Of a stretch of DNA of 32,000 bases, positions 2,080-27,209 are shown piece after piece. Under the pieces are notes generated by a model. That model had not been told where the DNA came from. It was given only the letters and a program-made list of their open reading frames with translations, and did no database searches. Both the position numbers and the translations under genes were made by a program. The stretch comes from Bifidobacterium longum subsp. longum JCM 1217 (GTDB lineage: Bacteria > Actinomycetota > Actinomycetes > Actinomycetales > Bifidobacteriaceae), in contig NC_015067.1 of the NCBI RefSeq assembly GCF_000196555.1, positions 330,001 through 362,000 on the forward strand, written 5' to 3'. How positions within the stretch are numbered: the stretch's first letter is position 1; every line of letters begins with the position of its first letter.

Positions 2080-4483
<2,404 letters not shown>

Positions 4484-4484
<1 letters not shown>

Positions 4485-4777
4485 TGGCTGCGGAAAAAAC
4501 CACGATGAAGGTCAACATCGTCGCCGCTGACCACCCTGTGTGGCACGGCGAGGCGACGAGCGTGACCATTCCCGCCTCTGAGGGCGGCATGGGCATCCTG
4601 CCCGACCATGAGCCTGTGCTCACGGTGATCAAGCAGGGTACGCTCACCGTGGTTGAGCCCGATGGCGATCGCCACATGTTCGAGGTGACCGACGGATTCA
4701 TTTCCTTCGACTCGAACAAACTCACCGTGGCGGTCGAGCGCGGCCACGACGTCCAGTACTCCGGCACCGCCGAGTGA
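4484..4777 (+). CDS. atpC: F0F1 ATP synthase subunit epsilon
   Basis: The ATG at 4484 overlaps the atpD TGA by 1 nt (GTGATGG), which suggests translational coupling. The product is a 97-aa epsilon-like sequence (MKVNIVAAD..VWHGEA...). The upstream GTG at 4451 would lie inside atpD. Confidence 0.9.
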
Positions 4778-4795
4778 CCTGAACCAACTCCTTAA

Positions 4796-4827
4796 GGGGC
4801 TCTCTGGTTTTCCAGAGAGCCCCTTTT
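4796..4827 (+). terminator. Intrinsic terminator of the atp operon
   Basis: GGGGCTCTCTGG (4796-4807), loop TTTT, CCAGAGAGCCCC (4812-4823), then TTTT. The 12-bp stem is perfect. Confidence 0.85.
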
Positions 4828-4856
4828 GCTATGTATGCCATGTGTTGCGCTACAGT
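4826..4856 (+). promoter_or_regulatory. Candidate nucS promoter (TTGCTA, 19-nt spacer, TACAGT). The -10 element ends 8 nt before the ATG, so the mRNA may be leaderless.
   Basis: TACAGT at 4851-4856. There is no Shine-Dalgarno sequence before the ATG at 4865. The -35 match is weak. Confidence 0.3.
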
Positions 4857-4864
4857 GGTGGCCT

Positions 4865-5635
4865 ATGCGAGTTATTGTTGCCGACTGTTCGGCCGAGTAT
4901 TCGGGCCGCCTCAACGCCTCACTGCCCCTGGCCAAGCGCGTATTGCTGATCAAGGCCGATTCCAGCCTGTTGATTTTCTCCGAATTGGGCTCCTACAAGC
5001 CGCTGAACTGGATGACCGCGCCCTGCACGATTCGTGAGATCGACCCAGCCGCCAAATCCGCGCAACATTCCCGGGAAAGTGTCGCTGGTGGGGCTGTGGA
5101 TGGTGATTCTGCGACGCATTCCCCGGAAAGTGTCGCCGCTGGTGAGCCGGAAAAGGTGCTACGTGTCAGCGCCGACAAGGGTTCGGACATTCTTGAAGTG
5201 ACGCTGCAGCATATCTATTCCGACCAAACCTATGATCTGGGCGAAGATCCGGGTCTCATCAAGGATGGCGTGGAAGACCATCTGCAGCGCTATCTGGCCG
5301 AGCAAATCGAGCGTATCGGCAAGGGAGCCAAGCTGGTGCGTCGCGAATACCCGACCGCCATTGGCCCAGTGGATATTATGGCCGTGAATGCCGAGGGCGA
5401 GCATGTGGCTGTGGAAATCAAACGTCACGGCGGCATTGATGGCGTCGAGCAGCTGACTCGCTACTGCGAACTGCTCAATCGAGATCCGCTGCTGGCCCCG
5501 GTGCACGGCATCTTCGCCGCACAAACCATCACGCCGCAAGCCCAGGTCTTGGCCAAAGACCGCGGCTTCACCTGCCTCATCCTCGATTACGACGATATGA
5601 AAGGCACCGAGGACGACAGTCTCAGGCTGTTCTAG
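4865..5635 (+). CDS. nucS: Endonuclease NucS / EndoMS (non-canonical mismatch repair nuclease), carrying an insertion of about 30 aa
   Basis: The N-terminus MRVIVADCSAEYSGRL..., YKPLNWM, the RecB-like C-terminal half (REYPTAIGPVDIMAV...VAVEIKR...GVEQLTRY) and the C-terminal ...LRLF are all typical of actinobacterial NucS. The start is placed at the ATG at 4865, not the track start at 4826. Confidence 0.9.
   Translation: MRVIVADCSAEYSGRLNASLPLAKRVLLIKADSSLLIFSELGSYKPLNWMTAPCTIREIDPAAKSAQHSRESVAGGAVDGDSATHSPESVAAGEPEKVLRVSADKGSDILEVTLQHIYSDQTYDLGEDPGLIKDGVEDHLQRYLAEQIERIGKGAKLVRREYPTAIGPVDIMAVNAEGEHVAVEIKRHGGIDGVEQLTRYCELLNRDPLLAPVHGIFAAQTITPQAQVLAKDRGFTCLILDYDDMKGTEDDSLRLF
5060..5136 (+). repeat. 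Composite palindromic repeat (two 26-bp imperfect palindromes plus a 25-nt G/T-rich spacer) inside nucS
   Basis: 5060-5085 is GCGCAACATTCCCGGGAAAGTGTCGC and 5111-5136 is GCGACGCATTCCCCGGAAAGTGTCGC. The same architecture occurs at 11771-11848. Confidence 0.8.
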
Positions 5636-5682
5636 ATATAGCAGGGGCTCCCTCATCAGAGGGAGCCCCTGCTATATCTTTT
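5636..5682. terminator. Bidirectional terminator hairpin between the convergent nucS and FKBP genes
   Basis: A perfect 19-bp stem: ATATAGCAGGGGCTCCCTC (5636-5654), loop ATCA, GAGGGAGCCCCTGCTATAT (5659-5677), followed by CTTTT. Confidence 0.85.
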
Positions 5683-6670
5683 AGTACGCGGCGAGAATAT
5701 CGATTACGAAGACCAACGTGGAGTTGGCGGGAATCGGACCTTGCTCCTTATCTCCATAGGCCTGATCCGGCGGAATCACCAGCAGAACCTGAGAGCCGAC
5801 GGTCTGGCCGACCAGACCCTTCTGCCAGCCCTCGATAACCTGATGCTGGCCGCTGGAATCGCTGAACAGATCGGCGTCGATTGTGGAATCGCGATCCCAG
5901 GACGAATCGAACTGCTTGCCATTCGTAAGCCAACCGGTGTACTTGACCACCACGGTGTTCTTGTCGGTCAGCTTGGCGCCGTTACCCTTGATCAGCGTCT
6001 GCGAGATCAGCGAATCAACCGAACCCTGACCGTTCATGTCGATGGACGGCTCGCCGTTTTTGGCTCGCGTCACCTTCGGCAGATTGGCCGGCACATCCTT
6101 GACTTCCTCGCCAGTGGCCTTCTCCAAGTCCTTGGACTTGGACACAAACGTCATCGCCAGAATGTAAGAGTACCCGGACGAATCCTGAGCGTTGACGCCA
6201 AAGCCAATCGTGGTGTTGATCTTGGCACCCTTGATCTGGTTGTAGTAGGTCGAGGAGAGGGTCTTGGAATCCACCTTCAGCGAGCAATCCGGCGTGTTCT
6301 TGGTCCAGGTGTCCATGAGCTCGGTTCCGTCTTTAACGTTGAGCGCGATGCCTTGGGCGCAGACGCGGTCGCCCTCCTCGATCACGTCGCCATCGCCCTT
6401 CTGCAGCACCACATAAGAGCCGTCGGACACGGTCATCGGCGTATTAAAGGAGATGGTCGGCTTCTCGCCGAGCTTGCCCTTGGCGGTCACGCCGGCAATT
6501 TGGCCCTTCTTGTCAGAAGAGTCGGAAGATGAAGAGGAATCGGAAGAAGAGGATTTCGAGTCCGAGCTCGAACTGGAGCAGGCAGCCAGCGACACGCACA
6601 TCGCCAGCGAGCAGGCAAGGGCAACGGCCTTGCCGAGGGGGGATAACATAGACTTAACAGACTTACGCAT
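5681..6670 (-). CDS. FKBP-type peptidyl-prolyl cis-trans isomerase, lipoprotein
   Basis: Signal peptide with lipobox SLAAC, then a Ser/Asp-rich linker. The C-terminal FKBP domain reads VVVKYTGWLTNGKQFDSSWDR...VIEGWQKGLVGQTVGSQVLLVIPPDQAYG. Confidence 0.85.
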   Translation of the reverse strand: MRKSVKSMLSPLGKAVALACSLAMCVSLAACSSSSSDSKSSSSDSSSSSDSSDKKGQIAGVTAKGKLGEKPTISFNTPMTVSDGSYVVLQKGDGDVIEEGDRVCAQGIALNVKDGTELMDTWTKNTPDCSLKVDSKTLSSTYYNQIKGAKINTTIGFGVNAQDSSGYSYILAMTFVSKSKDLEKATGEEVKDVPANLPKVTRAKNGEPSIDMNGQGSVDSLISQTLIKGNGAKLTDKNTVVVKYTGWLTNGKQFDSSWDRDSTIDADLFSDSSGQHQVIEGWQKGLVGQTVGSQVLLVIPPDQAYGDKEQGPIPANSTLVFVIDILAAY

Positions 6671-6735
6671 GACACATCACCCTACTGGTAAACCTTGATT
6701 TTCTGCGCTCCTAGGTAATAAACAGGTGAAGATTG

Positions 6736-6741
6736 TAGAAT
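6736..6741 (+). promoter_or_regulatory. Candidate -10 element (TAGAAT) 9 nt upstream of the ATG at 6751; the transcript may be leaderless
   Basis: TAGAAT at 6736-6741 with TG immediately 5'. No SD sequence precedes the start codon. Confidence 0.3.
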
Positions 6742-6750
6742 GGTTGAGTT

Positions 6751-7830
6751 ATGAGTGCTGAAGAACAGACTACAAGACCGGATAAGGGCGCCAAGCGTCC
6801 ATCCCGTCATGCCAAAATCATGCGTGGAGTGGTGACGCCTATCTTCGGACTATTGGCCGTGGCGGCTGTGGTGTTGGGGTACATGAATGCCACGATGTGG
6901 AAGCCCTCCACTGAAATCACCGCTTCCGCAACCATGAGCGGCTCCCGGTATGTCGTCACTGATCCGAATGTGCTGACCTTGTTGGATCAGAATGCCACGA
7001 TAACCGTGGACTCGGGATCCTCTCAGGACGAGGCGTGCGTGGCGTTGGGTTCGTCCAAGGATGTTGCCGGATGGGTCGCGTCCGAGAAGTCCTATACCCG
7101 CATCACCGGATTGGCATCATGGAGCGAGCTGAGCACCCAGAAGGGAAGCAGCACGAGTCAGGGAGCGCCTACCAGTGCCGATGACGCGGTGTCGTTCAAG
7201 GATTCCGATATGTGGACTGCCGTGAAATGCGGCACTGGGTCCGTTTCGCTGAAGAGCAAGAAGACCGGCGCCTCGACGGTAGCCATTGTGGATTTGGGCG
7301 AAAATGTCACCAACGCCAAGGTGCAGCTGCACTGGGTGCGCTCCGAAGTGCCGGACTTTGCGATGCCGTTCTATCTGTCCGGCGGATTGCTGGCCGTGCT
7401 GGCCGTACTGTGCGCCTCCGTGTTCGCCATGCCGCCGCATAAGCGCCGCAAGCGCATGGTGGAAGGCATGGCAAGCGCCGTAATCGAGGAAGAGGCACCC
7501 GCCAGCATCGCAGTGTCCGGGAAGCCGGATGGTGCAAGTCGACGTAATCGTCGCCGTCACGCCACACATCGGCGTTCGGGCCGTGCGTCCTCGCAATCCT
7601 CGCAATCTGAAGCCACCGAAACACCGGTTATCATCGACCCAAGTTCGCGTAACCTGGTCGCCGACCAGCAGACCGGTGCCGAAAGCGGCGCTGAGCCCGG
7701 CCTCAGCGCCGGCGATAACGAATCGACTTCGGTAATCACCCCTGACGAACTGCAGGCCTACTTCTCCCGCTTGGCCCAAGAGGTCAATACCGGAGACGAC
7801 TCGGCCGATGACGGACAGGAGGAAAGCTGA
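6751..7830 (+). CDS. Hypothetical membrane protein with two predicted TM helices flanking an extracytoplasmic domain of about 190 aa, and a charged disordered C-terminal tail
   Basis: 359-aa ORF. Hydrophobic segments are VVTPIFGLLAVAAVVLGYM and FYLSGGLLAVLAVLCASVFAM. I recognise no domain. Codon usage looks gene-like. Confidence 0.7.
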   Translation: MSAEEQTTRPDKGAKRPSRHAKIMRGVVTPIFGLLAVAAVVLGYMNATMWKPSTEITASATMSGSRYVVTDPNVLTLLDQNATITVDSGSSQDEACVALGSSKDVAGWVASEKSYTRITGLASWSELSTQKGSSTSQGAPTSADDAVSFKDSDMWTAVKCGTGSVSLKSKKTGASTVAIVDLGENVTNAKVQLHWVRSEVPDFAMPFYLSGGLLAVLAVLCASVFAMPPHKRRKRMVEGMASAVIEEEAPASIAVSGKPDGASRRNRRRHATHRRSGRASSQSSQSEATETPVIIDPSSRNLVADQQTGAESGAEPGLSAGDNESTSVITPDELQAYFSRLAQEVNTGDDSADDGQEES

Positions 7831-8837: not shown

Positions 8838-8865
8838 TTGTTGCCGCCGCCCACCGCGCGGTTAA

Positions 8866-8957
8866 CGCCCCACCACGATATGATTCATCCACCACGATGT
8901 CGGTAAGTTTTACCTTTCGCACAATGGTGCCGTTTTGAGTCACATCGTGGTGGGCGT
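8866..8957. repeat. Inverted-repeat cluster of the CCACCACGAT motif, with two alternative 5' arms for one 3' arm
   Basis: CGCCCCACCACGAT (8866-8879) and CCACCACGATGT (8889-8900) are both complementary to ACATCGTGGTGGGCGT (8942-8957). The 3' arm is followed by TTTT. Confidence 0.6.
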
Positions 8958-8961
8958 TTTG

Positions 8962-9014
8962 CTACGTGGTGGGAATTTCACCGCGTAGTGGAAGAATCCC
9001 TACGTGGTGGGAAT
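8962..9014 (+). repeat. Direct repeats of about 19 bp: CTACGTGGTGGGAAT twice, with a decayed middle copy
   Basis: The perfect 15-mer CTACGTGGTGGGAAT occurs at 8962-8976 and 9000-9014. A degenerate copy, CGCGTAGTGGAAGAAT, lies at 8982-8997. The cluster ends 70 nt upstream of the next start codon. Confidence 0.7.
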
Positions 9015-10140: not shown

Positions 10141-10767
10141 CTAAACCATCCGATTCTTCCCGAAATATTGCTGGAACCTTGGCCCCTCCAGCGCCAGTTC
10201 CTCCTCGAAATCATCCGCCCACTTACAGAACGGACGGTTGGCGAGACCATCGTTATTGAATCGCGCCTGATCGGTGATTTCGGTGATGCAGAATTTCGGA
10301 ATCGTCAGATTGGTAACCGGCCCGGATCGTTCGGCCTCGGCTACGATCAGCGGCGCGTTCGGCCCGCCGAACACGTCCACGCTCCAGCCGTCTTCCTCAA
10401 TCCACACGGAATACCGGTTCTTGATGATTACCGAGCCGCCGCGCTTGATGAGTTCGGCCGCGATACGCGTATCGATTTCGCGCTCGACTTCGTAGCGCGT
10501 GCCGCCCACGGACGGACCTTTGACGGTGACATATGCTTCCGAGAACCGGTCGCGGTATTCGTCCAGCACGGCCACCGGATTTACGTCGGGCGTCATGTCG
10601 ACGTGAACCTTGCGCGAGACCAGCCGCACGCGCAAGGCGTAATTGTCGGCATGCACGTAGTAGCTCTGAATGATGAGGGTCGGGGCGTCGCCGTCGTCGT
10701 ATTCCGCCGGCAGTTCGCGGCAGAAGAAGCGGCGTTCGTATTCGAAGTCATCTGTAGGTTCCGACAT
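10141..10767 (-). CDS. CYTH-domain protein (triphosphate tunnel metalloenzyme / class IV adenylate cyclase-like)
   Basis: 208 aa. The N-terminal FEYERRF matches the CYTH ExExK-type motif, and the acidic/basic beta-strand pattern continues further on (YALRVRL, YEVEREID). The family call is from memory. Confidence 0.6.
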   Translation of the reverse strand: MSEPTDDFEYERRFFCRELPAEYDDGDAPTLIIQSYYVHADNYALRVRLVSRKVHVDMTPDVNPVAVLDEYRDRFSEAYVTVKGPSVGGTRYEVEREIDTRIAAELIKRGGSVIIKNRYSVWIEEDGWSVDVFGGPNAPLIVAEAERSGPVTNLTIPKFCITEITDQARFNNDGLANRPFCKWADDFEEELALEGPRFQQYFGKNRMV

Positions 10768-10864: not shown

Positions 10865-10940
10865 GGGTTTGTAGCTCAGTGGATAGAGCGTCTGTCTCCG
10901 GAACAGAAGGTCGTGGGTTCGATCCCCATCAAGCCCACCA
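10865..10940 (+). tRNA. tRNA-Arg (anticodon CCG), with encoded CCA
   Basis: Cloverleaf folded by hand. Acceptor GGGTTTG/CAAGCCC, D arm GCTC..GAGC, anticodon stem TCTGT/ACAGA with loop CTCCGGA, T arm GTGGG-TTCGATC-CCCAT. Confidence 0.93.
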
Positions 10941-10973: not shown

Positions 10974-11080
10974 GCATATTCGGCGCGTGCAAGGCTGGTG
11001 CTGGTGTCGGCAATGGCAAGGCCGGTGATGCCGGCTCGCTTGGGTCGTGGAAAAACCGTCCGGTTTGGCGAGAACGGTAG

Positions 11081-11142
11081 CCGAATCGTCTGGAATCGTC
11101 TGGAATCGTCTGGAATCGTCTGGAATAGCAAGGAATAGTCTG
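11081..11142 (+). repeat. 10-bp tandem repeat: GAATCGTCTG four times exactly, followed by two decayed units
   Basis: Four perfect units occupy 11083-11122. They are followed by GAATAGCAAG and GAATAGTCTG. Confidence 0.9.
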
Positions 11143-11315: not shown

Positions 11316-11705
11316 ATGAGCGAAAAGATGGAAGCCGTAGCCACTTCCGAGGCGCCGGCCGCGCTGGGCGCATACAGCCAGGCGGTGAAGGCCAATGGCT
11401 TCGTGTTCGTATCCGGCCAGCTGGGCATTGATCCGGCCACCGGCGAACTGGCGGGCGAGACCGCTGGAGAGCAGGCTGCACAGGCGCTGAAGAATATTAA
11501 GCACATTCTCGACACTGCCGGTACCGGCATTGAGCATGTGTGCCGTGCCACCATCTACCTGAAGAACGTCGAGGACTTCAAGGAAGTGGACGCACGTTAC
11601 GCTGAGGCGTTCATCGGCTCCGTCAAGCCCGCCCGCGTGGCCTTTGGCAACAACATGATTCCCAAGGGCGCGCTCGTGGAGATTGACGCCATCGCGGTGG
11701 AGTGA
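11316..11705 (+). CDS. ridA: RidA / YjgF family reactive-intermediate deaminase
   Basis: 129 aa. APAALGAYSQAVKANGFVFVSGQLGIDPATGEL... and the C-terminal ...ALVEIDAIA are typical. GAGAAGGAG lies upstream. Confidence 0.9.
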   Translation: MSEKMEAVATSEAPAALGAYSQAVKANGFVFVSGQLGIDPATGELAGETAGEQAAQALKNIKHILDTAGTGIEHVCRATIYLKNVEDFKEVDARYAEAFIGSVKPARVAFGNNMIPKGALVEIDAIAVE

Positions 11706-11720
11706 TTCGAACGTTTCCCC

Positions 11721-11761
11721 GGCGGCCCGTCTGCGCGCATGGTGTGTGCAGACGGGCCGCC
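11721..11761 (+). terminator. Hairpin after ridA with a perfect 14-bp stem and no U-tract
   Basis: GGCGGCCCGTCTGC (11721-11734), a 13-nt loop, then GCAGACGGGCCGCC (11748-11761). Confidence 0.6.
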
Positions 11762-11770
11762 GCGTATTGT

Positions 11771-11848
11771 GCGACGCATTCCGGGGAATGTTTCGCTGGG
11801 CGGGGGTGCGAGGTGTGGTTCCGCGACACGTTCCCGGGAACGTTGCGC
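11771..11848 (+). repeat. Composite palindromic repeat (two 26-bp imperfect palindromes plus a 26-nt G/T-rich spacer), intergenic copy
   Basis: 11771-11796 is GCGACGCATTCCGGGGAATGTTTCGC and 11823-11848 is GCGACACGTTCCCGGGAACGTTGCGC. Each is followed by CTGG, as are the nucS copies. Confidence 0.8.
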
Positions 11849-11887: not shown

Positions 11888-12805
11888 ATGGCATCCAAAG
11901 GAAAACCGTCGCCGCGTTCGGCCGTAAGCCCGCTGAGTGATGAGCAGGTCAAGCGTCTGGCCGCCCGCCACACGCTTGTGGACTCGACACAGTATTACCC
12001 GACCGGCCCCCGCACGCCCAATCAGCCGGAAATCAACGCCCAGAATCCCAAGGCCACCAAACGACTGCTGGGAGGGGTGTCCATTGTGTTCCGCGCCAGC
12101 TGCAAGACCAAGGCCTGGGGCTTGGAACAGGTGCCGGAAACCGGACCGTTCATCACCGCCGCCAGTCATGTCACCATGTTTGATGTGTTCGTGCCAATGA
12201 TGAGCCTGTTCCACATGGGCCGCCGCCCCCGTTACATGGCCAAGGCCGAGATGGCGAAGTGGCCATTGATCGGCAAGTGGTTCCAGTTGGTCGGCATGCA
12301 GCCGGTGCAGCGTCATTCGGGCAAGGCCAAGCAGATCGAAGAGACCTCGATTGATATTCTGACGTCCGGCCGCCCGCTGACGGTCTGGCCGGAAGGCACC
12401 GTGACCCGCGACCCGAAAAAGTGGGTGATGAGCATTAAGGAGGGCGTGGGATATATCGCCCTTGAATCCTCGCGCAGACTGGGGCATCAGGTGCCGCTGT
12501 ACCCGGCGGTGACGTGGGGTGCCGCCTCCATCAACCACTGGTGGCCATGGCCGCGCAAAAACGTGGTGATGTGCTATGACCATGCGCTCGATTACTCCGA
12601 TTTGCTTGCCGACATGGACTCATGGGGTGAAGAGCCGCCTGCCGAGGCCGTGAACGAGCTGATGTGGCGCGTGCTCAAACGCATGAACACAGTACTGGAG
12701 GAAATTCGTGGCGAGCAGTTCCCCGCTGAAGGCTACTGGGACTACCGCAGTATGAGTCGTAAGCCTTGGCCTGAAGCCGGCGGCCCGTTCCCGGCTGAGA
12801 AGTAG
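11888..12805 (+). CDS. 1-acyl-sn-glycerol-3-phosphate (lysophospholipid) acyltransferase, PlsC family
   Basis: HxxxxD motif (SHVTMFD) and PEGT motif (WPEGTVTRD). The start is set at the ATG at 11888 (MASKGK...) because the upstream part of the track ORF runs through the repeat element. Confidence 0.8.
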   Translation: MASKGKPSPRSAVSPLSDEQVKRLAARHTLVDSTQYYPTGPRTPNQPEINAQNPKATKRLLGGVSIVFRASCKTKAWGLEQVPETGPFITAASHVTMFDVFVPMMSLFHMGRRPRYMAKAEMAKWPLIGKWFQLVGMQPVQRHSGKAKQIEETSIDILTSGRPLTVWPEGTVTRDPKKWVMSIKEGVGYIALESSRRLGHQVPLYPAVTWGAASINHWWPWPRKNVVMCYDHALDYSDLLADMDSWGEEPPAEAVNELMWRVLKRMNTVLEEIRGEQFPAEGYWDYRSMSRKPWPEAGGPFPAEK

Positions 12806-26897: not shown

Positions 26898-26970
26898 GCG
26901 GACATAGCTTAGTTGGTAAAGCGCAACCTTGCCAAGGTTGAGACCGCGGGTTCGAGTCCCGTTGTCCGCT
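26898..26970 (+). tRNA. tRNA-Gly (anticodon GCC)
   Basis: Folded by hand. Acceptor GCGGACA/TGTCCGC, anticodon stem CAACC/GGTTG with loop TTGCCAA, T arm GCGGG-TTCGAGT-CCCGT. CCA is not encoded. Confidence 0.93.
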
Positions 26971-27016: not shown

Positions 27017-27088
27017 GGGCGGTTGGCGCAGTGGTAGCGCACTTCCCTGACACGGAAGGGGTCACAAGTTCGAATCTTGTATCGCCCA
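27017..27088 (+). tRNA. tRNA-Val (anticodon GAC)
   Basis: Acceptor GGGCGGT/ATCGCCC, anticodon stem CTTCC/GGAAG with loop CTGACAC, T arm ACAAG-TTCGAAT-CTTGT. Confidence 0.93.
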
Positions 27089-27136: not shown

Positions 27137-27209
27137 GGGCGATTGGCGCAGCGGCTAGCGCACTTCGTTCACACCGAAGGGGTCGTAGGTTCGATTCCTA
27201 CATCGCCCA
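27137..27209 (+). tRNA. tRNA-Val (anticodon CAC)
   Basis: Acceptor GGGCGAT/ATCGCCC, anticodon stem CTTCG/CGAAG with loop TTCACAC, T arm GTAGG-TTCGATT-CCTAC. Confidence 0.93.

Follow-up and report, generated by a model that had tools for sequence, protein, structure and literature searches.

A dispersed palindromic repeat family of Bifidobacterium longum with an in-frame array in the mismatch-repair nuclease gene nucS

The nucS gene, its palindrome array, and the intergenic counterpart

The window analyzed here, a 32,000-nucleotide stretch of Bifidobacterium longum subsp. longum JCM 1217 DNA, contains nucS, the gene for the mismatch-repair nuclease NucS (EndoMS) of the Actinobacteria, bacteria without MutS and MutL in which variation of this enzyme can alter mutation and recombination rates. 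The nucS open reading frame is on the plus strand at positions 4865–5635 (ATG at 4865, stop codon at 5635) and encodes a protein of 256 residues that is 100% identical to the NCBI entry "endonuclease NucS [Bifidobacterium longum]". The protein comprises a NucS_N and a NucS_C domain (Pfam PF21003 and PF01939) and has relatives in the Protein Data Bank (PDB) under entries 2vld and 5gke. Two 26-bp palindromes, located by sequence inspection and by pattern scan, are read in frame within the gene on the plus strand: unit 1 (GCGCAACATTCCCGGGAAAGTGTCGC, positions 5060–5085), translated as AQHSRESVA, and unit 2 (GCGACGCATTCCCCGGAAAGTGTCGC, positions 5111–5136), translated as ATHSPESVA. The spacer between them, recognized by inspection on the same strand, is G/T-rich and 25 nt long (positions 5086–5110), and the resulting period of 51 bp corresponds to 17 codons. 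The unit coordinates and the 17-codon offset given in a preliminary description of this DNA were exact on re-checking, and the duplicated peptide that it read from the two units, HSRESVAGG and HSPESVAAG, was reproduced by translation. This two-unit array (positions 5046–5148) falls within positions 5027–5152 of the plus strand, the stretch coding for the length-variable loop of the NucS N-terminal domain (TIREIDPAAKSAQHSRESVAGGAVDGDSATHSPESVAAGEPE), as delimited by a NucS alignment and an AlphaFold2 (AF2) model.

A second array of the same palindrome is observed in non-coding DNA of the window, in the spacer that follows the 3′ end of a RidA-like (Ribonuc_L-PSP) gene (gene call at positions 11316–11705, plus strand). 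Its two units, GCGACGCATTCCGGGGAATGTTTCGC at positions 11771–11796 and GCGACACGTTCCCGGGAACGTTGCGC at positions 11823–11848, were found on the plus strand by pattern scan, are 52 bp apart, and flank a G-rich spacer of 26 nt (positions 11797–11822, plus strand, by sequence inspection). The second unit ends 40 nt upstream of the ATG of an acyltransferase (plsC-like) gene at position 11889, and a G+C-rich hairpin (~11718–11762) lies between the RidA-like stop codon and the array. A degenerate pattern allowing up to three mismatches finds only these four sites in the window, whereas 0.00 are expected from 100 shuffles. Unit 1 of nucS is 92% complementary to the intergenic unit at 11823–11848, and at the DNA level the nucS units are 85–92% identical to the intergenic ones, in support of the earlier proposal that the nucleotide element, rather than the peptide, is the primary entity. 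The two arrays had also been described as having the same architecture, which is correct for the palindrome pair, the spacer length, and the G/T-richness of the spacer and incorrect for the spacer sequences, which are unlike each other (nucS versus RidA, z = 0.1). Nor is each palindrome followed by CTGG: TGG comes directly after only three of the four palindromes, and unit 2 of nucS has CGC first.

The array occupies the most variable part of NucS. An alignment of 27 Bifidobacterium NucS proteins, which range from 219 to 298 residues, places nearly all length variation between the segments APCTIRE-I-P and PEKVLRV, and most species carry an unrelated, mostly acidic loop sequence there. Among representatives of all lineages, the typical NucS length is 220–235 residues. 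The ~30 extra residues noticed in the B. longum reading frame are thus real; the loop, however, varies in length across the genus and is not extended in this reading frame alone. The orthologue alignment contains no homologous peptide in other NucS proteins, the loops of which are unrelated in sequence and length. Similarly, the AF2 model places the insert in a low-confidence, loop-like segment of the N-terminal domain: the predicted local distance difference test score (pLDDT) falls below 50 at residues 66–91, between the strands formed by residues 54–59 and 97–103, in a model with a mean pLDDT of only 65. In B. platyrrhinorum, the nucS loop (contig L222, positions 10163–10288) bears an in-frame tandem repeat of its own, a 15-bp unit present three times (DDVSG/DDVSD/DAVSD). 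This different repeat marks the NucS loop as a general site of frequent in-frame expansion across Bifidobacterium.

No bacterial NucS structure is present in the PDB, and the solved NucS/EndoMS structures are all archaeal. Alignment to 5gke shows that Y12, N48, and W49 of the window protein correspond to Tyr41, Asn76, and Trp77 of the Thermococcus kodakarensis enzyme and are invariant or nearly so. In the archaeal enzyme, these residues shape the pocket for the mismatched base (PMC6829318). The insert lies ~12 residues downstream of this pocket (N48–W49) and precedes the invariant R100. The loop appears to tolerate almost anything, yet it is not far from the DNA-binding surface.

The repeat family and its variation within and between species

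A low-copy dispersed family of palindromes with 12-nt arms and a 2-nt center exists in B. longum. The 26-bp unit has a consensus of approximately GCGACRCATTCC-NN-GGAATGTKGCGC. A first scan of genome contigs with the pattern GCGNNNCNTTCCNNGGAANGNNNCGC was too loose, 117 of the 120 matches listed being chance matches in unrelated GC-rich genomes; the matches listed also included 3 palindromes, each single, in the non-coding parts of other Bifidobacterium genomes. With a stricter pattern, at least 91 stretches were recovered from metagenome contigs, mostly from the human gut, and clustering of their flanks yielded at least 10 distinct Bifidobacterium sites, along with a few likely chance matches in environmental contigs. 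The earlier expectation that copies would be found beyond the two loci of the window is therefore borne out, with at least 10 sites in B. longum-type contigs, nearly all of them non-coding. The census is a lower bound, as the search pattern missed at least one true copy, in lysA. The same family pattern had no match in viral contigs.

The sites recovered are diverse in setting. Beyond nucS itself (site A, coding) and the RidA–plsC spacer (site B), units are observed upstream of pheA (site C), between an aminotransferase gene and a ROK-type kinase gene (site D, three units), after a tRNA gene and its terminator (site E), in a two-unit array represented by L153:7530–7607 (site F), 12 nt past the stop codon of an endonuclease/exonuclease/phosphatase-family gene (site G), in the divergent tatD/fic region (site H), and between a convergent ECF-S component gene and hicB-like gene, 12 nt past a stop codon (site I). 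A single unit is found at the edge of a short contig (site J, L166:30–55), and a degenerate copy lies upstream of ffh (site K). The proteins flanking sites E, G, H, and I match B. longum proteins exactly, so one species carries most of the sites. Every site found other than nucS and lysA is non-coding. Arrays consist of one to three units with a period of 52–54 bp at the non-coding loci and of 51 bp only in nucS. The spacers of different arrays have a common length (25–28 nt) and G/T-richness only, and the flanks of the units are not conserved, TGG following some of them. In arrays B and D, the sequence past the last unit resembles, by eye, the preceding spacer, which suggests local tandem duplication within these two arrays.

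The second coding copy is located in lysA, the diaminopimelate decarboxylase gene. LysA proteins of 530 residues (clusters P0361 and P0362, 244 member sequences) carry GCGACGCATTCCCTGGAAAATGGCGC in frame, at L224:3649–3674 and L225:1716–1741, within the peptide ARISATHS[L/P]ENGAEK. The copy is read in the same frame as nucS unit 2 and has 22 identical nucleotides with that unit and the TCT of the spacer preceding it. LysA alleles of 519 residues lack the element (ARIGESH-ERELHYD; compare L226 and L227), and alleles of 540–543 residues, those of B. breve among them, have an unrelated 22-residue insert at the same point. In both nucS and lysA, the palindrome known from non-coding DNA is thus present as a stop-free in-frame copy that some alleles or orthologues lack, and the Pfam domains of both host proteins are intact.

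Two metagenome contigs join the two coding copies. In contig L134, the 5′ part of nucS (window positions 4333–5136) passes within unit 2 into the 3′ part of lysA (L224 positions 3646–6929), and in contig L219, the 5′ part of lysA (L224 positions 2223–3674) is joined to the 3′ part of nucS (window positions 5108–5414). The overlap of the two contigs is precisely the 29 nt that nucS and lysA share, and a second junction in L219, at window position 5414, is unrelated. Because the joins of these short contigs fall exactly in the shared stretch and L219 carries the extra junction, they were not accepted as real nucS rearrangements and are probably assembly chimeras caused by the repeat. Repeats of this family can accordingly be a source of chimeric metagenome assemblies of the nucS/lysA kind.

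Unit number is polymorphic within the species. B. longum NucS proteins are mainly of the 256-residue, two-unit form, the clusters P0002, P0005, and P0006 alone comprising ~1,300 member sequences, all intact, and one-unit forms of 239 residues are found in clusters P0015 and P0017. In the DNA of six strains with the P0015 form, nucS contains a single palindrome with the left arm of unit 1 and the center, right arm, and flank of unit 2. In P0017, the crossover lies on the other side of the center (QHSRESVAAGE, versus QHSPESVAAGE in P0015). Because the two one-unit junctions are different, a unit has been lost from nucS at least twice. A chimeric one-unit allele is also present in the RidA–plsC array of strains L121 and L123, in which the unit at 11771–11796 is absent, and the number of units at this spacer varies independently of that in nucS. 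Among the metagenome contigs listed, nucS has two units in 11 contigs and one in 2, site D has three units in 11 contigs and two in 1, the RidA spacer and site E have one or two units, and site F has two or one. Every well-supported nucS allele keeps the frame and is intact. Deletions within the array that preserve the frame are rare and were seen in the metagenome proteins P0009, P0012, and P0032, and no three-unit allele was found among the longer NucS proteins, the longer entries being start-codon or frameshift artefacts. Presence/absence variation, which the preliminary description had proposed to look for in a segment of ~100 bp, is realized in B. longum as polymorphism of exactly one unit (256 versus 239 residues), together with relatives that are without any unit.

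Diverged forms of the palindrome are observed in two other species. NucS of B. olomucense and B. felsineum contains a duplicated FSRES or FSHES, the copies being 17 residues apart, with TTTTCGCGCGAATCG or TTTTCGCACGAATCG as the corresponding DNA. The right arm of this variant, CGAATCGTGCGC, is recognizably related to the B. longum arm GGAATGTTGCGC, and at the innermost pair of the arms both sides have changed, so that TTCC..GGAA of B. longum reads TTCG..CGAA. In B. olomucense, the TTTTCGCGCGAATCG variant occurs twice in nucS and twice in the RidA–plsC spacer (L127:3780–3850 and L127:10185–10260), and a 15-mer of its nucS recurs with 15 of 15 nt identical, twice and in opposite orientations, in its own RidA–plsC spacer; in B. 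felsineum, the variant locus is at L128:10185–10260. Comparison of the nucS loop with the rest of the 20–32-kb locus gave 42 matches in B. longum (mean of 3.2 for shuffled loops) and 19 in B. olomucense (mean of 1.1), in both cases only at the RidA–plsC spacer. The two loci thus have a motif in common within a species, and that motif is a different one from species to species. For B. felsineum, the match between loop and spacer was not significant, and since the likeness perceived by eye needs insertions and deletions, it is not claimed. No B. longum-type palindrome is present within six mismatches at the loci of B. olomucense or B. felsineum, the diverged variant being there instead, and both the nucS and the RidA–plsC loci are without the element in the closest relative sampled (P0025) and in B. 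saguini. In B. felsineum and B. saguini, the RidA–plsC spacer is unrelated and rich in repeats; it spans ~280 nt (L128:2288–2565 and L223:2543–2824), is homologous between the two species, and contains a long hairpin (CAGCCCGAATTCCTTGCACT...AGTGCAAGAAATTCGGGCTG) as well as some six inverted repeats of the CCCGAATT type.

Nature of the element and competing explanations

Taken together, these observations make it probable that positions 5046–5148 are a two-unit array of a dispersed palindromic repeat that is tolerated in frame in a permissive loop of NucS. The earlier suggestion of an intergenic-type repeat tolerated inside nucS is supported by the non-coding copies at 10 or more sites, the unit polymorphism, and the loop-like insertion site. 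The array would be carried as a translated passenger of ~30 hydrophilic residues that leaves the nuclease intact, because the loop appears to be intrinsically permissive, being predicted to be disordered and varying in length throughout the genus. We infer that the insert is functionally near-neutral for NucS. Unit number presumably changes by recombination or replication slippage between near-identical units, a process that would have given rise to the common 256-residue allele and to at least two independently derived 239-residue alleles, with only in-frame (51-bp) outcomes persisting in nucS.

As a type of element, the family resembles repetitive extragenic palindromes (REPs) and the bacterial interspersed mosaic elements (BIMEs) composed of them in that a short palindrome of 26 bp occupies at least 10 unlinked, mostly extragenic sites and in that its clusters vary in unit number between strains (nucS, the RidA spacer, and sites D, E, and F). 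There are no GTAG or CGTC tags of the REP type: the units start with GCG and end with CGC, and CGTC is found only inside some arms. The designation "REP-like" used in the preliminary description consequently suits the architecture and the distribution and does not extend to the tags or to hairpin covariation.

Several observations weigh against the reading as a REP-like passenger. The arms do not covary, 81.6% of pairs being complementary versus 85.3% in shuffles, with double changes in only three pairs, and arm positions 4/23, 5/22, and 8/19 are mostly non-complementary. Hairpins of single units in single-stranded DNA are predicted at -1.9 to -9.8 kcal/mol, and nucS unit 1 has the value of -1.9 kcal/mol (z = +0.3). 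When 846 kb of Bifidobacterium DNA were scanned with a weight matrix, the scores were sharply bimodal and no degenerate or relic copies were detected; a selfish family undergoing decay would not usually look like this, which hints at constraint or homogenization. The ~33-nt lysA insertion has no clear target-site duplication, and no transposase was noted beside the sampled sites, with no complete genome among the DNA scanned. The observed copy number is low and the census incomplete, the AF2 model on which the loop assignment draws is only moderately confident, and the presence of the B. olomucense variant at both loci is not readily explained by a purely neutral passenger.

Because the arms do not covary and the single-unit hairpins are weak, it is the sequence rather than the stem that is conserved, and an REP recognized as a hairpin was rejected on these grounds. 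Folded as RNA, the complete nucS segment is likewise unexceptional (z = -1.3). A larger unit consisting of the palindrome and a homologous spacer was also rejected, as no pair of spacers is significantly similar between arrays. A miniature CRISPR array was rejected in view of arrays of at most three units, repeats only 75–90% alike, one coding array, and no viral or Rfam match; a terminator or promoter identity was discarded because neither array received a terminator-like or sigma-70 promoter call; and a known RNA family was discarded because Rfam matches, even at permissive thresholds, were at noise level.

The alternative that fares best, unlikely but to be taken seriously, is that the palindromes are cis-acting sites for a sequence-specific, dimeric DNA-binding protein, either global (nucleoid-associated) or a regulator. 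The nucS copy would then be a functional DNA site housed in a permissive coding loop, the site would co-evolve with its protein, and cooperative binding would be possible at tandem sites spaced by five helical turns; this interpretation is compatible with a REP-like element. Conservation of sequence rather than stem agrees with it, as do the bimodal weight-matrix scores without decayed copies, the period held at 51–54 bp (~5 turns) despite unrelated spacers, and the location of several sites either 40–55 nt upstream of a start codon or within a divergent promoter region. Other sites, however, would not be expected to coincide with promoters, being placed between convergent genes or 12 nt past a stop codon, and the neighboring genes (plsC, pheA, the aminotransferase gene, tRNA/pta, ffh, the rimM region, tatD/fic, and ECF-S/hicB) are functionally incoherent. 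At most loci with several units, strains differ freely in unit number, copies come and go in coding loops such as that of lysA, and several of the "invariant" columns were imposed by the search pattern itself.

The cross-species comparison bears on this alternative from both sides. In B. olomucense, the core is changed symmetrically in all four copies, as a switch in protein specificity would produce, whereas the RidA–plsC site is absent in the closest relative sampled, in B. saguini, and in B. felsineum. The nucS and RidA loci have either been colonized independently by lineage variants, or been homogenized by gene conversion, or been constrained together with a trans-acting factor. It is mainly on account of this pattern that a binding site retains a minor but substantial share of the probability.

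The central 10 bp of the Bacillus subtilis Noc-binding site, ATTTCCCGGGAAAT, a 14–16-bp palindrome (PMC7383237), are the same as the core most often seen in the family, TTCCCGGGAA, so such a core is readable by a dimeric protein. Similar to the B. longum units, Noc-binding sites are low-copy chromosomal palindromes, and the likeness serves as a lead only. The outer GCG...CGC blocks of the family are without a counterpart in the Noc-binding site, and the central dinucleotide of the family varies (CG, CC, GG, and TG). A Noc/ParB site was rejected: the match does not extend beyond the central 10 bp, Noc occurs in Firmicutes alone, and no candidate binding protein was found. If the repeats are nevertheless protein-binding sites, nucS would contain a cis-element embedded and co-evolving in a coding loop. 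A bolder version is doubtful, namely that the palindromes are DNA sites of a putative co-evolving dimeric protein that have been hosted in nucS since before the species diverged, and/or that the one-/two-unit polymorphism tunes NucS and so produces heritable differences in mutation rate among strains.

A recombination or contingency switch of mismatch repair is highly improbable. Under this scenario, NucS would be reversibly inactivated or modulated, giving rise to mutator subpopulations, through out-of-frame unit changes or through recombination with other copies, such as those in the RidA spacer 6.7 kb away or in lysA. The loss of a unit at least twice with different crossover points, the rare in-frame array deletions in P0009, P0012, and P0032, the reciprocal nucS/lysA joins of L134 and L219, and the position of the insert between DNA-contacting residues of the N-terminal domain would fit such a switch. 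The well-supported alleles, however, are all intact and in frame, with the two-unit allele dominating; L134 and L219 bear the signature of assembly chimeras; and no inversion junction between nucS and the RidA spacer was seen in any contig examined. Furthermore, 26 bp of homology is a poor substrate for RecA, and an exchange between nucS and lysA would destroy two useful genes.

Least probable of all is that the duplicated peptide (H/F)-S-x-E-S is the selected entity and its likeness to intergenic DNA secondary or coincidental: B. olomucense and B. felsineum do keep F-S-R/H-E-S twice, 17 residues apart, despite differences in DNA (serine TCG versus AGT), but the occurrence of the same 26-mer at about 10 non-coding sites effectively refutes this reading, to which the close DNA identity of the nucS and intergenic units, the exact recurrence of the B. 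olomucense nucS motif in its own intergenic spacer, the lack of the peptide in most Bifidobacterium NucS proteins, and the viability of the one-unit alleles are also opposed.

Comparison with known repeat systems and further features of the window

Intragenic REPs are known from several species, where more than half are dimers or groups coding for 20–30 residues (Di Nocera, De Gregorio and Rocco 2013, PMC3733652). Many of these reside in genes for DNA synthesis and repair (uvrA/B/D, recBCD, polA, and dnaE), sometimes as the only coding target in the genome, and recB carries different REPs at roughly one and the same position in two Xanthomonas species (PMC3733652). A repeat inside a repair gene is less novel than the preliminary description had implied, since REP dimers in DNA-repair genes were already described in other phyla (PMC3733652). 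The REP families concerned belong to the Proteobacteria and a few other phyla, and the word "Actinobacteria" does not occur in that paper (PMC3733652). Tagged REPs have an unpaired GTAG or CGTC at one end, a stem of 8–9 bp starting with A-T, a loop of 4–5 nt, and, in the CGTC type, a CCA-like tail, and GTAG families are associated with a REP-associated tyrosine transposase (RAYT, a Y1 transposase) flanked by the repeats (PMC3733652).

The B. longum family and the intragenic REPs are alike in being short palindromes that are mostly intergenic, with some wholly inside open reading frames, in forming dimers, and in having a repair gene as host. The B. longum family differs in its untagged 12-2-12 form with GCG/CGC ends, in the lack of arm covariation, in its few copies, in its direct tandem arrays with a 51–54-bp period, in having nucS as host, and in its polymorphism within the species. 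The phenomenon is thus known in other bacteria, and no description was found for this repeat family, gene, or phylum: the literature contained no described Bifidobacterium REP family or NucS insertion, only typing work by rep-PCR and unrelated uses of "NUCs". With the array in nucS, the curious enrichment of palindromic repeats inside genes of DNA repair reaches a phylum and a repair pathway new to it.

The Rickettsia palindromic elements (RPEs) are the classic example of palindromes inserted in frame, and the B. longum case is a close match to that phenomenon: like them, the B. longum palindromes are found both in frame in genes and in non-coding DNA, encode a hydrophilic, fold-compatible peptide, and are present or absent between orthologues. 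RPE-1 units, as reportedly described by Ogata and colleagues in 2000, are ~100–150 bp long and are spread over many genes of their host, an obligately intracellular alphaproteobacterium. The B. longum unit, in contrast, is 26 bp (~33–51 bp with flank), has two known coding targets, nucS and lysA, and bears no sequence relationship to RPEs. BIMEs of Escherichia coli consist of units that alternate in orientation, with conserved linkers, hundreds of copies, and integration host factor (IHF), gyrase, and DNA polymerase I as partners. The B. longum family has in common with them the clusters of intergenic palindromes at fixed spacing and the strain-variable unit number; its units are direct repeats, its linkers are not conserved, and no partner was found. 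Finally, the variable-number tandem repeat (VNTR) and mycobacterial interspersed repetitive unit (MIRU) type of in-frame minisatellite in Actinobacteria is comparable in having a period that is a multiple of three (51 bp in nucS) and a unit-number polymorphism in coding sequence. The main differences are that in nucS only the 26-bp palindrome is repeated, spacer and flank being different, that there are at most two units, and that the core is common to unlinked loci.

The natural 17-residue length polymorphism of NucS is common and lies a dozen residues from the mismatch pocket, and it provides a ready pair of alleles that could be compared for effects on genome stability. The host, B. longum, is a keystone species of the infant gut and a probiotic.

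The nucS gene of the window is itself flanked by two similar palindromic hairpins, both on the plus strand and neither belonging to the repeat family. The first, recognized by sequence inspection, follows atpC upstream of nucS (positions 4797–4822, GGGGCTCTCTGG..CCAGAGAGCCCC), and the second is an intrinsic-terminator-like hairpin after nucS found by terminator prediction (positions 5635–5678, GGGGCTCCCTC..GAGGGAGCCCC). In B. olomucense (L127), B. felsineum (L128), and B. saguini (L223), nucS alone is inverted with respect to the atp operon and the FKBP gene, an arrangement consistent with a single-gene inversion of nucS between such flanking hairpins.

Other repeats are present elsewhere in the window. 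In the non-coding DNA upstream of a TPR_20 gene (positions 8850–9014), CCCACCACG/CGTGGTGGG motifs make up a cluster of repeats, both direct and inverted (families I4, I22, and D12), which may be a regulatory region. A perfect to near-perfect 10-bp tandem repeat, GAATCGTCTG, is present in 5–6 copies at positions 11073–11142, downstream of a tRNA gene (positions 10865–10937) and upstream of the RidA-like gene. Three further tRNA genes are clustered at positions 26898–26970, 27017–27088, and 27137–27209, two of which are seen as a 59-nt direct repeat (family D6), and tRNAs are the only Rfam families identified over the window.

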